A stretch of 63,717 bases of DNA, filler included, from Bigelowiella natans CCMP2755 (taxonomy: Eukaryota; Protista; Cercozoa), in the NCBI GenBank assembly GCA_000320545.1. It is 7 parts of 7 records of this genome, joined end to end, with 100 filler letters (N's around TTAATTAATTAA, not from the genome) between each part and the next. Parts side by side here need not be neighbours in the genome. Positions count along the whole stretch, not along the records: positions 1 to 22,584 come from ADNK01003139.1; positions 22,685 to 26,801 come from ADNK01003067.1; positions 26,902 to 51,667 come from ADNK01002818.1; positions 51,768 to 58,815 come from ADNK01003310.1; positions 58,916 to 61,073 come from ADNK01003676.1; 2 more parts are not named here. One strand, written 5' to 3'. The translations under genes were made by a program, and so were the position numbers. Shown here in pieces: positions 4,103 to 60,100 of this stretch. Numbering within the stretch: the first letter of the stretch is position 1; the number at the start of each line of letters is the position of its first letter. The notes beneath the pieces are model-generated. The model did no database searches. It was not told the origin of the DNA and saw nothing but the letters and a program-made list of their open reading frames with translations.

Positions 4103-6010
4103 ACTGCTTCGCACACGCATCGGGTTCTGTCTGGAGAAAATGTGGTTGTTCATTGCCATCTGCAACTTCGCTCATTGGACAAATGTGGACTTTCATCACT
4201 TCATCTCTTAGTTTGCGATGGAATTCAGGATTTAGTTCGGCTCTTAGGTTTGTCATTGCGATGACGATCTCACTAAGTTTGTCGTCAACATCATGGATTT
4301 CATCTGCTGTGCTACTTCCAGTTACTTGCTTGACATTGCTCATGTCAATCTCATGATGCGATGTTTCTTTGAATGAAAATCATGGCATGGTTGGTTGTTC
4401 TGTGAAAGTTGATCACAGGAATCCCTTTGCTAACAGCATGTTGCTGAGTGTGCACGTTGTGTTGGCAGTCGCATGTTCTGGTGTTGGTACACAGCAGTCG
4501 CACGTTCATGGCAGTCGTGTGTCAGCATGTGGCACAGCTGTCGCATCTAGGCATGTGCATTGGCACGGCACATCAGCACATCCGATCCCGCCAGTGGCAT
4601 GAACGGAATGTCAAAAACAAACACATTGTGCATTGTGCGCATGAAGCTTCACATCACAATGAACGTGACCCTTGGCCGTTGAAAAAACAAAAGACCCTCA
4701 TGAAGCAGGAGCACAACAATGCCTTTGAATCATGCCAACTGTTGGCGAATGCAATGTGATGCAGCACAACACTGCAGTCGCATGATGCAGTCGCGTCGCT
4801 TTGCGAGCCAGTGGACTTGCCCACATCGCGGACACCGCCGTTGGCGGTTGCGATGATTTCATCATTGTTGCTCACACGTCACACACAGACTGCACGCAAC
4901 AATGACGTTCGCTAGTTCGGTGCACGCGCCAGGCGCACGCCAGCTAGCCAAGTGCGCAGGTTGGGCTAGTGGGGTTGGCGTTGAAGAAAGTGATGTTCGA
5001 TCACTTTTTCGAACTCGAACAAACCATTGAACGCTCGTGAAGTGCTCAAGTGAAAGTGAAAACAGTGATCCGTCAACGTTTGGCAATTGAAAGCTGAAAC
5101 AATCATCACTTTTTTGAAAGCCATCGCAAATGGCAAATGACACACGTGATTGTCAACTTTGTGCAAACGTATTGCACTCTGCTCATCACGTCTCGGTCGA
5201 CAGATTGCTCATCACGCGAACCTGGAAAGCAAGATGGCTCTGTAAGTTTTGGGGGCGCAATGCCAAAACTGGAAAACATTGTTGCGCAGTTGAAAGCTCT
5301 GATCAGGCGCCGTGAAAAATGCACCTGTCGATTTTTTTGGCATGCTGTTTTTTTTTGTTTGAAGTCTCCTAGCAGTTTGCCGCAAATATACAAAAATGCG
5401 TGCTGAAGGCATGGTTGGCTCGAATAAGGTGCGAGCGCAGCGCTCTGGCGAGCAGACACCAAGTCTCCCTGCTGGAGCTGCATCTAGCTAGTAGGCGAAT
5501 AGCGTGGTACGTCTAGTGGTGTTTTGATAAACATGATGCATTTTTCTAGTTTGTGAAACAAATTCAAAATGCAAGCCAAGCGCTCAGGGAAGCGATGCAA
5601 GATCGACTGCAACGTTGATGATGAAGATCCCAAAGCCTATCATTGACTTGCATGCCAAAGGGAATGAGCATCGCCTCCCATGCTAGCGCAGATGACAGTC
5701 ACATGTATGTGTGTGCATGTCAATTTCACGATTTCTAGCGCACCCAATTGCCGCTGCGTTCGTGCACATGCACTATATCAAAACTCAAACGAGAGCAGTC
5801 CATTATAGATAGCTACTCAAATTTAGATGCTTGCAAACTCATCGTGTGCCGCTCCTGCTGCCTGGCGCATTCGAACGTGACAATTTTCACGTCGAACACA
5901 ACTTGTTTGCAGGTTAGTGGGCTCTGAATTGTCATGCAAGACCGACAGTTGAGAAGCTCCATTCACGATGGGCAATGAAGATGCACACCATGCGCGCACG
6001 CATGTTGCTT
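4103..6010. other. TpA-depleted, TG/CA-rich intergenic domain between convergent Kelch and myosin 3' ends
   Basis: 4490-5169 (~680 bp) contains only four TA dinucleotides (4548, 4913, 4945, 4967), all inside CTAG; 4550-4912 has none. CpG remains common. Confidence 0.85.
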
Positions 6011-6013
6011 TCC

Positions 6014-6705
6014 CTACTTCATGGCCTCAGGTTTTTCCCAGGTTGTTTCATCTGAAAAATACCAGCACGTCGTAAGCACAGCAGACGCGAAAGCAGCTGC
6101 GAAAAACCTTCCTTCTTAAACTATCATACCGCAAGAAGTCAAATCACGAAAAACAGGAAAAACCAACTATAGCACCCTTCCATACATACACACTCAACAC
6201 AGCGATCTCTCTTTTATCGTCCTCAGCATCCTCATCGAGTAGTCACGTACCAGTTTTCGTATTCCAGTAATAAATCTCTCCATCGTCAGTCTTGCACTCC
6301 TCCCATTCAGGTTCTTCCTCCTTAGCCGCCGCTCCGCCATTCACATCGGCCCCGGCTGTCAATGGATTGGAAGTACCCGCTGTGGTCCTCGAAGATCCCC
6401 CCCCCCCTTCTTTCGTTGCAGCAGCAGCAGTAGCCGACGCAGCGACAGCAGCGGCGGCATCTTGCTTCTTCTTCAATTCCTCTGGGATATCCCACTGCCA
6501 ATCGAAATAACGGCGTGTGAGTGATGAGTAGATAGTGAAAATGAAAAGGAGACCTCCCAAACTGAAACTGTGAAATAAGGCTTTTTTTTTTTTTTCTTCC
6601 TTCCTTTTTGAAAAGAGATCTCACCGTGGTTTCGTCTGTAATGGTGTTCCAATAGTACGTTTCGCCATCCTCGGACTTGAGCTCCTCCCACACGCTCTGC
6701 CCCGA
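6014..6705 (-). other. Two C-terminal WW domains of the myosin
   Basis: [28 protein letters not shown] and [28 protein letters not shown] across GT-AG introns. Confidence 0.9.
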
Positions 6706-57788: not shown

Positions 57789-58083
57789 CTCTCTCTCTCT
57801 CTCTCTCTCTCTCTCTCTCTCTCGCTCACACACACACACACACACACACACACACACACACACACACACACACACACACACACACACACACACACACTTT
57901 TTCTCATCAATAAATCCGCTGCCGAAAGCAAATGCTTACACCTTTAACCAAAAAAAGGTGAAGGTACTGCGGGAACTGCAATAAATAATAGCAAGCAGGT
58001 GATCAAATATTGTTGTTTGACGTGTGTGTGTGTGTGTGTGTGTGTGTGTGTGTGTGTGTGTGTGTGTGTGTGTGTGTGTGTGT
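57789..58083. repeat. (CT)n-(CA)n and (TG)n microsatellites forming a long inverted pair
   Basis: (CA)n at about 57827-57897 and (TG)n at about 58023-58083. Many other (AT)n, (CT)n, (CA)n and poly-C/G tracts occur in introns throughout the window. Confidence 0.9.
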
Positions 58084-59199
58084 GCGTGTGTGCGACTTTC
58101 TCATCATGCAACCCGCTGCATGCGTATATGATGATGCACATCTCTACCTCGATGTATTTTTATCAAAAACACTGCAACCATTGACAGCAGGATGACGAGA
58201 AAAGCGCTGATCGAAAACGCAGAGGTGGCAAACCACAACGGCAGAATGGAGTCAAACCCAACGATAGTTCTCCACTCCTAAGCTGGAATAACCACAACAA
58301 ACTCTATGATCAACACTCGTGCTGTTGCCCTGGCTCTGCCACGTCTTTCTCCTCCTCCCTCCCCGTTCCGTCGGAGTGTTCCTGGAGGGGAGATTTGAGG
58401 CTGGTTTCTTACGATGATTTACCGTCATGGAGACAGCACAACCCTTTTATTCTCAGTGGATATCGGTATTATCACTCTAGTATATAGAAGAAGAAGAGGA
58501 GAAGGAAGAAGAAGAAGAATCAAACTTTCCACTTCTTCATTCCAATCATGTAGTAGGTCGGAGATGGCTAATGTGTCATCGACTCTTTCGTTGTGTTTTG
58601 TACTTCCAATGCCAAAATTTCAAGGGTTAACTGTGAGAGCTACGCAGCATGCATTCGCTCTTGCTTCTTCCCACACAACGAATTGGTACGACACACAACA
58701 CACACACACATTTAAAAGTATATAAAATATTATATATATATATATATATATATATATATATATATATATATATATATACTAATAATACTAAATACTTTAG
58801 TCGTGTGTGTGTTTTNNNNNNNNNNNNNNNNNNNNNNNNNNNNNNNNNNNNNNNNNNNNTTAATTAATTAANNNNNNNNNNNNNNNNNNNNNNNNNNNNN
58901 NNNNNNNNNNNNNNNTGTTGGTGGAGGAGGAGGAGGAAGGAAAGACCCTCCACGGCCCTTGAACGATGCCAAGATGCACATGTGCACTGGTGGCGTGTGC
59001 GTGGGCAAGAGGGAACAGGATCTGATAGTAGCGAGTCAGAAGTAAGAAACTGCCTCTCTGCAAATGCCCATTTGGAACGAGAACGGGGGGGGGGGGAGGG
59101 GGGGGCTCGTAACAGACAGCAGATTTCTTCTACGCTAAAAGTGCTTTTGGCATGCAGAGCTTCTTGCTTTTGTGCTTGACGACGATCGAGGGCACAACC

Positions 59200-60100
59200 C
59201 AACAGAGTTGAGTTGTTCGTGGTGGATTACGGGCACTGTGCGAGTATTAACTAATGAAGCAAAACAACATGCCACGAGCTAGCAGTGTCAATAGCATCAT
59301 GCAAAGCTAGGCTAGCATTGTGAATAATATGACTATGTGTCTGCTGGTGTATTACTCTCGCGCGCTAATTGTAGCAAAAGATGCGCAACATGCTAACATG
59401 GCGTCGCCTCTTATTATCTCGCGGTCTGTGAGAATGAGGCTCATTCCTCCTGCCTTGTACGTGTACTAGTGCACTAGTGCAGGCTACTAGGCTACACTGC
59501 GTTGTGTGAGCTGCTTTTGCATGTGGTTGGTCAGTTTGTTAGCGGATGGCTACGACGCGCACGCCACAGACGCGGGCACTACTACACAGCAGCGAGCTCT
59601 GGAGCTAGTGTCAGTGAGCTAGCGCTGCTAATGATGTGTTGATTGATTGATTGCGCTAGCTAGCTTAGTAGCCGTCAGAGTTACAGCAGCAAATATGCAA
59701 AAACAAATCCTACGCCGTGCCAAGCTATAGCGCATGCAGGATCAATTCACAAGCTAGCACGCTAGCACGGTCGTGGTAGTACTAGCGCATGCACCTTGCT
59801 CGCTATACGTACTACATGTACTACGCACATTACGCTGAATCGTGGCTTGCCACATGCCATTATCATGCGAGCATGGCTAAACATACACCTACGCATGTCT
59901 AGATATATAAGCACACGTATGCGGCTAATGACAACAATAGCGATATCATTGCCATATATGCAAGCTAGCAAGTCCCCGCCAACCTGCCTAGCTGCGCTAA
60001 AACGCTCAAGCCGGCTGCTCTAATATTGCATGCTAGCATATGCGCGTGCAACAGCACAGAACACGCACTTGCTAGCTTGCATGGCTTTGAGCCAATCTGC
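59200..60100. other. CTAG/AGCT-rich intergenic domain
   Basis: Dense GCTAGC/ACTAGT/GCTA motifs between a plus-strand ORF end (59179) and minus-strand ORF ends (~60170). Confidence 0.7.

Follow-up and report, generated by a model that had tools for sequence, protein, structure and literature searches.

What process could strip the dinucleotide TpA (TA) from short stretches of non-coding DNA downstream of genes, and why is the tetranucleotide CTAG so frequent in some of the same stretches? The question is raised by a window of 63,717 nt, the whole stretch of Bigelowiella natans CCMP2755 DNA analyzed here, in which an earlier note had picked out seven blocks (together 6,237 nt, 9.8% of the window) and ascribed them to an undescribed editing system. 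This single window is our evidence base, and all block-level statistics come from within it. We propose that the blocks are probably scars of the TpA mutator of B. natans acting at gene 3' ends, together with a second process that likely keeps or makes CTAG. The blocks are as follows.

4090..6009, no strand: block 1, strongly TA-erased, from the stop codon of a kelch gene (4100-4102, +) to that of a myosin gene (6014-6016, -)
23262..24040: block 2, TA-erased, 3' of a 5'-truncated papain-type fragment (-) and 5' of the myosin promoter
32050..32950: block 3, in part TA-erased, with 24 CTAG, flanked by convergent 3' ends
40231..40980: block 4, in part TA-erased, with 22 CTAG, between convergent stop codons (40132-40134, +; 40982-40984, -)
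47281..47680: block 5, TA-erased, 145 nt past a stop codon (47136-47138, +) and ahead of the next + strand gene
54000..54669: block 6, with 20 CTAG, not TA-poor, in a convergent setting read by eye
59200..60100: block 7, with 18 CTAG and weak TA loss, in a convergent setting read by eye

That these blocks differ from the neighboring DNA and were correctly placed is borne out by Markov scoring. When a model was trained on six blocks and applied to the seventh, each of the seven held-out blocks outscored all 844-1046 overlapping background windows. A model built from all seven returns the blocks as its top seven segments (scores 18.9-89.5, with the next segment at 8.5), and one built from block 1 only finds blocks 2-5 and parts of block 7 and misses block 6. 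Relative to the microsatellite-masked rest of the window, the pooled observed/expected ratios are 0.65 against 0.76 for TA, 1.56 against 1.08 for CA+TG, 1.59 against 1.14 for GC, 0.80 against 1.01 for CG and 0.53 against 0.93 for CC+GG; CC/GG is depleted in all seven blocks (0.35-0.60 vs 0.93 outside), CATG is up 3.6 times and TGCA 2.7 times. The abundance of TG/CA, CATG and TGCA and the retention of CpG are therefore as the earlier note described them, and the two explanations it had dismissed stay dismissed: decay of methylated CpG is rejected because a CpG-only model predicts CG 0.30, TA 1.0 and CC 1.1, whereas CG stands at 0.80, and repeat-induced point mutation (RIP) does not fit CA/TG at 1.56 with TA lowered or unchanged.

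The loss of TA is uneven. Its observed/expected ratio in blocks 1-7 is 0.30, 0.20, 0.74, 0.80, 0.26, 1.15 and 1.28, respectively, against 0.76 in the masked rest, and unprotected TA (no C before, no G after) makes up 12/371, 0/142, 19/164, 9/119, 1/105, 35/124 and 29/181 of the pyrimidine-purine (YR) steps, i.e. 3%, 0%, 12%, 8%, 1%, 28% and 16%, against 23% outside the blocks. Block 6 is thus not TA-poor, and block 7 barely so. The blocks carry two separable signals: (A) the loss of TA to TG/CA, strong in blocks 1, 2 and 5, partial in 3 and 4, weak in 7 and absent in 6, and (B) a gain of CTAG.

Signal A does not call for an undescribed system, because the same substitution has already been measured in this species. 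According to the main text of the preprint by Mettrop et al. (bioRxiv 10.64898/2026.01.13.699255), two viral inserts took up 231 of the 302 mutations that arose de novo, nearly all of them TpA to TpG/CpA, and mutated about 1000 times as fast as background; windows poor in TpA and rich in CpA+TpG occur genome-wide, with 124 clusters; the spectrum outside the inserts is normal and AT-biased; and ADAT2 is named as a candidate, a 5' T being the usual preference of deaminases. The TA frequency given there for B. natans is 6.0%; that of our window is 5.85%. With the preprint's 1-kb cut-offs (Rho TpA <= 0.43, Rho CpA+TpG >= 1.52), blocks 1, 2 and 5 pass and blocks 3, 4, 6 and 7 fail, and at most two consecutive windows qualify (four phases), whereas a cluster in the preprint has at least three. 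Roughly estimated, a 20-fold increase confined to 10% of the genome would account for no more than one to three further mutations in the preprint's experiment, so that there is no conflict with the normal spectrum that it reports outside the inserts. In our literature searches this preprint was the sole paper combining TpA, hypermutation and Bigelowiella.

The sequence context in which TA survives provides the most detailed view of signal A. In blocks 1, 2 and 5 taken together, TA accounts for 13/617 YR steps in unprotected contexts, 24/204 in half-protected ones and 18/37 between C and G (p 1.5e-7 and 1.2e-6), while the same classes outside stand at 23%, 22% and 15%; survival is about 6 times higher after C or before G and highest in CTAG. 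The share of A is lowered only after T, as would be expected of an ADAT2/TadA-type DNA deaminase, and not in TAG: it falls to 0.08-0.09 in TRH of blocks 1, 2 and 5 (R, purine; H, any base except G), and after C or G, outside TA contexts, it is 0.54-0.78, mostly near the expected 0.73. TTAA is not spared in these blocks (0 vs 27 expected, both-strand counts). The strand-symmetric conversion of TA to TG/CA is supported, and the rule that TAH, or equivalently DTA (D, any base except C), is edited fits blocks 1, 2 and 5. The description of TA as surviving in the strongest blocks almost only as CTA, TAG or CTAG stands for blocks 2, 4 and 5: the fraction of TA in these contexts is 0.68, 1.0, 0.63, 0.80, 0.86, 0.45 and 0.61 in blocks 1-7 (0.34 outside).

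The same rule accounts for the loss of CC/GG. In equilibrium simulations with an AT bias of 2.65 and a transition/transversion ratio of 7 (taken from bioRxiv 10.64898/2026.01.13.699255), an editing rate of 30 times background at TAH gave CA 1.60, CC 0.56, CG 0.88 and a GC content of 0.43, compared with 1.75, 0.53, 0.81 and 0.48 observed in blocks 1, 2 and 5; context-free editing left CC at 0.74, and we therefore attribute the depletion of CC/GG to the context rule. The log-likelihood for these blocks rises from -238 without editing to 175 with context-free editing, 192 with TAG spared and 202-210 with an additional CTAG term. Among 29 models the best are those with whole-CTAG protection or with an added conversion of TAA to TAG, which fit nearly equally; a separate CC to CT process was tried and fitted worse than its omission.

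Two alternatives bear on signal A. One places the lesion on thymine (5-hydroxymethyluracil, formyl-uracil or a base-J-like mark at DTA) rather than adenine, within the same domains. DTA to DCA and TAH to TGH leave identical sequence, and adenine deamination and a modified thymine are therefore indistinguishable here. In favor of thymine, the convergent termination regions of kinetoplastids carry base J. The sparing of TAG counts for it too, whereas several A-G anticodons are edited by eukaryotic ADAT2/3. Adenosine deaminases acting on RNA (ADARs), for their part, prefer 5'UAG (PMC10661471). We nevertheless regard a thymine lesion as quite unlikely, since the preprint's main text names an ADAT2 candidate and cites a 5' T as the usual deaminase preference (bioRxiv 10.64898/2026.01.13.699255), and literature searches returned no paper joining Bigelowiella, JBP and thymine. 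The other alternative dispenses with a special mutator and lets selection on 3' untranslated region (UTR) or terminator sequence remove UpA and keep CTAG. Stop codons do mark where blocks 1 and 4 begin, block 4 is transcribed over half its length, a fixed CTAG-containing 12-mer (see below) looks selected, and coding exons avoid TA too. Against this, the TA loss is strand-symmetric and reaches 0-3% in blocks 1, 2 and 5, the gain of CA/TG with the loss of CC/GG matches the mutator prediction, and a mutator of the same type has been measured in the species, as reported in the preprint's main text; selection as the only cause is very unlikely.

All seven blocks lie 3' of a stop codon and five between convergent genes, where gene ends were taken from RNA for blocks 3 and 4, from Pfam domains and stop codons for block 1 and from splice signals judged by eye for the rest, and the earlier note was correct on this point. 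Seven of the eight assessable gaps with a 3' end contain a block, compared with none of six divergent gaps (Fisher p 0.005 in a post hoc test on hand annotation, with two gaps at assembly breaks excluded); the sole 3'-end gap lacking one is 220 nt long and possibly lies within one transcript. N stretches with a central 12-letter TTAA linker occur at approximately 22586-22684, 26802-26901, 51668-51767, 58816-58914, 61074-61173 and 62331-62430, and two of them may hide gene ends.

RNA was compared over 28001-41400; the RNA label of one read set is presumed, and spliced joints are seen in it. At block 4 the + strand gene ends near 40299 and the - strand gene extends to 40622, and an RNA contig at 40622-41191 turns 40622-40980, half of the block, into 3' UTR. 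At block 3 the contigs of the + gene stop at 31975 and those of the - gene at 32587, and - strand reads occupy 32918-33364. The description of the blocks as intergenic is thus true only in part, and half of block 4, being transcribed, is at odds with the suggestion of silenced chromatin. TA is retained in introns. No A to G differences confined to RNA were listed, at a depth of about 6 or less on single-copy parts.

Signal B is of a different kind. The observed/expected ratio of CTAG is 4.28 in the blocks and 0.35 in the masked rest; blocks 1-7 contain 11, 3, 24, 22, 4, 20 and 18 copies (1.5-7.4 expected from base composition), and the count exceeds all 1000 dinucleotide shuffles in six of the seven blocks, block 2 being matched by 19/1000. 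The gain is 6-7-fold in blocks 3, 4, 6 and 7. The reading of CTAG as no more than a doubly refractory residue is not supported: simulated sparing alone yields ratios of 0.2-0.6, compared with 1.5 and 6-7 observed. The excess includes a fixed 12-mer, CTAGCTAGCTAG, i.e. (CTAG)3, with nine exact copies in the window, confined to blocks 3, 4 and 6, and 32 overlapping matches at up to two mismatches (1.7 expected), all in blocks 3, 4, 6 and 7. The exact copies are distributed as follows.

32248..32734: four (CTAG)3 12-mers, starting at 32248, 32416, 32544 and 32723, the first three bridged by DNA contigs with no differences
40409..40925: three (CTAG)3 12-mers, starting at 40409, 40744 and 40914, all bridged by DNA contigs and the last two by an RNA contig
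54290..54657: two (CTAG)3 12-mers, starting at 54290 and 54646

Nine of the 11 CTAG arrays have exactly three units, two have two units and none has four, a preference with p about 1e-4 against any geometric law, and the run lengths are two-peaked (51 of 5-7 nt, 2 of 8-11 nt and 9 of 12-17 nt). A slippage microsatellite was rejected as their origin, since run lengths do not fall steadily and CATG and TGCA behave differently, forming no comparable arrays in the window. The letters of the 12-mer are those of a synthetic six-frame stop linker; however, six copies are bridged by read-derived contigs with no differences, and so are not assembly linkers. A six-frame stop needed by the cell is a weak candidate as well, with 53 stop codons per kb in the blocks vs 36 per kb in the intron-rich myosin DNA. 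Contig depth over bins with CTAG arrays is 250-480 vs 51-93 in single-copy bins, indicating similar sites elsewhere in the genome. Tested post hoc on 9 arrays, their spacing lies close to 166 nt (p 0.02); CTAG sites taken all together show no periodicity (p 0.28-0.63). Inverted repeats are in no excess over Markov simulations in the blocks (31/300 reach 10); perfect ones with 13- and 16-bp arms around CTAG are found at 40834-40881 and 59958-60082, a class not above expectation.

CTAG might also be neutral and functionless, produced by an editor that turns TAA into TAG (and TTAA into CTAG) or by CTAG duplication or transposon footprints that build the 12-mers. Such an origin would explain no more than signal B and could coexist with the mutator. 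TAA/(TAA+TAG) is 0.20-0.24 in every block group vs 0.58 outside, and a TAA to TAG term scores 90-100 in blocks 3 and 4, where protection scores 95-116, and 33 against 31 in blocks 6 and 7. On the other hand, point editing gives no two-peaked run length, and in the copies of a dispersed element described below the TAA at 32614 reads TAG in less than 5% and that at 32580 in about 1% (DNA contigs). We consider a neutral origin possible, although we lean away from it.

More direct evidence on substitutions comes from two sequences with further copies in the genome.

32568..32648, +: dispersed high-copy element of about 80 bp, within block 3
38000..38147, +: stretch of exon sequence that occurs a second time in the genome, with 4 listed differences, all A/T to G/C, 3 of them at TpA

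The element reaches a summed contig depth of about 1e5, which is not a copy number, against 51-93 in single-copy bins, with more than 100 contigs in each DNA run. Transcripts of its copies carry poly(A) after 32608, 15 nt past an ATTAAA-like hexamer (32588-32593), with 119 RNA reads having an A run. Its 5' edge is sharp and follows TA runs, its 3' edge is ragged with a GT-rich tail, and both strands are seen in RNA; it could be the end of a miniature inverted-repeat transposable element or short interspersed element, or a dispersed terminator cassette. It has no second copy in the window (self-BLAST, nhmmer), no Rfam match, and a predicted fold no better than shuffles. Its motif is matched in no viral contig, in no prokaryote genome and once in metagenomes, in a locus (L001) where the copy lies near 30-111 (-), within a 3' UTR. 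At 479-1156 (-) L001 also encodes a spliced-looking thioredoxin-like protein with three in-frame TGA codons in a GUGUU motif, which resembles algal selenoproteins of the PDI type.

The window's copy of the element has 6 listed differences from the majority, four of them T to C and two of these at TpA; at both TpA sites the window reads CA, and most copies as well as L001 read TA. Among the copies in one run, CTAA varies by A to G in 37% and by T to C in 7%, and CTAT by A to G in 48%. In the second copy of 38000-38147, with 5 differences in 108 nt of which four are listed, all three TpA changes obey the rule, while 19% of A/T lie in TA. Letters from other loci flanked by CTAG arrays or by pieces of the element (239 nt, 9 distinct rows of 22, counted by eye) have all nine of their TA steps in CTA or TAG and none unprotected, with about 8 expected. 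A pattern of T/A to C/G transitions at TpA is matched by 3/4 paralog differences and by the commonest element variants and not by the kelch repeats described below, all in small numbers.

The presence of a high-copy element in block 3 lends some color to the idea of a single repeat family, TA-poor from the start, as the source of the blocks. However, self-BLAST and nhmmer within the window revealed no similarity among the blocks beyond short simple repeats, so that none is a copy of another; blocks 3 and 4 are for the most part covered by single contigs that show no differences; and the element takes up 80 of 900 nt, its common form retaining TA steps. A single repeat family is largely refuted and, in our judgment, hardly credible. 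An Rfam scan of the window found only a tRNA and U5, neither inside a block, and no viral or transposon domains were found in 40 open reading frames (ORFs), five of which lie within or overlap blocks 1, 2 and 5.

Two genes adjoining the strongly TA-erased blocks are as follows.

2234..4102, +: kelch ORF without introns, belonging to a multi-copy family, whose N-terminal half is TA-poor and extends the domain of block 1 leftwards
24176..24502, -: C-terminal fragment of a papain-family protease (PF00112, E 1e-13), with no upstream exons seen

In the kelch ORF, T occupies codon position 3 before A in 4/42 cases and otherwise in 57/92. Its N-terminal half has 9 matches (the window's own protein, four Bigna1 models of B. 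natans at 56-79%, three from JGI and one from ENA) and no matching locus in viral contigs. Among its repeats and paralogs, 4/7 departures from conserved Tyr lead to Cys or His, three of them in one paralog, and His to Tyr occurs 6 times. The truncated paralog P0007 (Bigna1/139068) has two Tyr to Cys and one Tyr to His at conserved columns, as TA to TG/CA predicts. In the last repeat, at 4082-4084, Cys (TGT) replaces the Tyr (TAT) of the other five repeats and three paralogs, a polarized change of TA to TG that borders block 1. A tRNA-Lys(CTT) gene (1899-1973, +) lies directly upstream of the TA-poor kelch region. The myosin exon has one match, at 53%, in Amorphochlora amoebiformis. This match, the Bigna1 models and the TA frequency point to a chlorarachniophyte, very likely B. 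natans, as the source of this intron-rich DNA. Between blocks 3 and 4, 33100-40134 holds two divergent AT-rich genes with short introns, which by eye look like band-7/SPFH paralogs and of which the + strand gene is partly copied elsewhere in the genome. A U5 spliceosomal RNA gene lies at 57017-57128 (-). The heptamer TGCGACA/TGTCGCA occurs 23 times in the window vs 9.2 expected (0/100 shuffles equal), mainly in divergent gaps and before gene starts (1642-2107, 23264, 24542-24654, 28612-28708, 36701, 44117, 47922 and 57231-57302), and is a candidate for a promoter motif; in some of these stretches TA is mildly depleted, with no CTAG gain.

Thus, we propose that the mutator would target, either weakly or episodically, the non-coding DNA found at the 3' ends of genes. 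On either strand it would edit the A in TAH (or the T in DTA), perhaps 10-30 times as often as background and against the ordinary C to T bias, and it would spare introns and promoters. A new C would never arise after C nor a new G before G, draining CC/GG. Repeated or duplicated DNA gathering at 3' ends is the likely trigger, and an ADAT/TadA-type DNA adenine deaminase the likeliest candidate for the enzyme. The CTAG excess of the four convergent blocks between host genes most likely represents a retained cis-element that the mutator spares, a palindrome of fixed length that would read the same for both genes, with a predicted role in 3'-end formation or termination. In a bolder version, which we consider unlikely on balance, chlorarachniophytes would apply a DNA editor to invaders and also where ordinary genes terminate. 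It would remove TAH throughout the genome (in this gene-dense window, from 10% of the DNA), and a dedicated palindromic (CTAG)3 site at near nucleosome-length spacing would mark convergent terminators and recruit or bound the editor, being built from the one TA context that the editor cannot touch.

Several observations weigh against our proposal. Block 6 shows no TA loss, AA, GA and GC steps misfit, no model yields the high GC step together with purine-pyrimidine alternation, and the CTAG excess is fitted no worse by TAA to TAG editing than by protection of the whole CTAG. The N-terminal half of the kelch ORF lacks the sparing by C and G, and its six internal repeats show 3 transitions out of majority TA steps and 9 into TA. 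In the element, GTAG, CTAC and TTAA vary in less than 5% of copies though editable by the rule, and one change in the window's copy, CTA to CCA, is disfavored by it. Many copies of the element, and L001, sit in TA-rich DNA, and the element itself is therefore not the cause of TA loss; a visible link to duplicated DNA, adjoining or inside, exists in only 3/7 blocks. Direct substitution counts are tiny and the copies are not independent, two DNA runs show no difference from the window where blocks 3 and 4 are single-copy (the window may itself derive from these runs), and the evidence comes from one window.

If the mutator does act at ordinary gene ends, the preprint's interpretation as antiviral hypermutation, as given in its main text, would be too narrow, and a process linked to transcription termination would leave its imprint on about a tenth of gene-dense DNA. 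The spared TAG context would provide a fingerprint for candidate enzymes and weighs against an ADAR-like editor. Candidates for the 3'-end signals of this lineage, for which our literature searches found no described ones, are the fixed (CTAG)3 motif and the high-copy element with its poly(A) site.

It remains to compare the blocks with known systems. Fungal RIP is likewise a regional, dinucleotide-specific, strand-symmetric hypermutation of repeated DNA; however, it runs in the opposite direction, from CpA to TpA, whereas signal A is a loss of TpA. Kinetoplastid base J is a mark found at convergent termination regions, and five of the blocks lie between convergent genes; base J is not known to erase TpA. 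ADARs and TadA/ADAT2 convert A to G after a 5' T or U, the same preference as found here, but ADAR1 and ADAR2 act on double-stranded RNA and prefer 5'UAG, and TAG is the spared context in the blocks (preference of ADARs from PMC10661471). The viral methylation motifs in the available part of PMC13196603 include no CTAG. The closest relative is the hypermutation of Mettrop et al. (bioRxiv 10.64898/2026.01.13.699255), which shares with signal A the change of TpA to TpG/CpA on both strands and windows poor in TpA and rich in CpA+TpG. Its targets, as its main text describes them, are viral inserts of 25-186 kb, whereas the blocks are 0.4-1.9 kb long, unclustered and located at the 3' ends of host genes. 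The terms "CTAG", "trinucleotide", "CpC" and "terminat" do not occur in that main text, relative to which the host 3'-end placement, the spared TAG, the 12-mers and the high-copy element with its poly(A) site are new.

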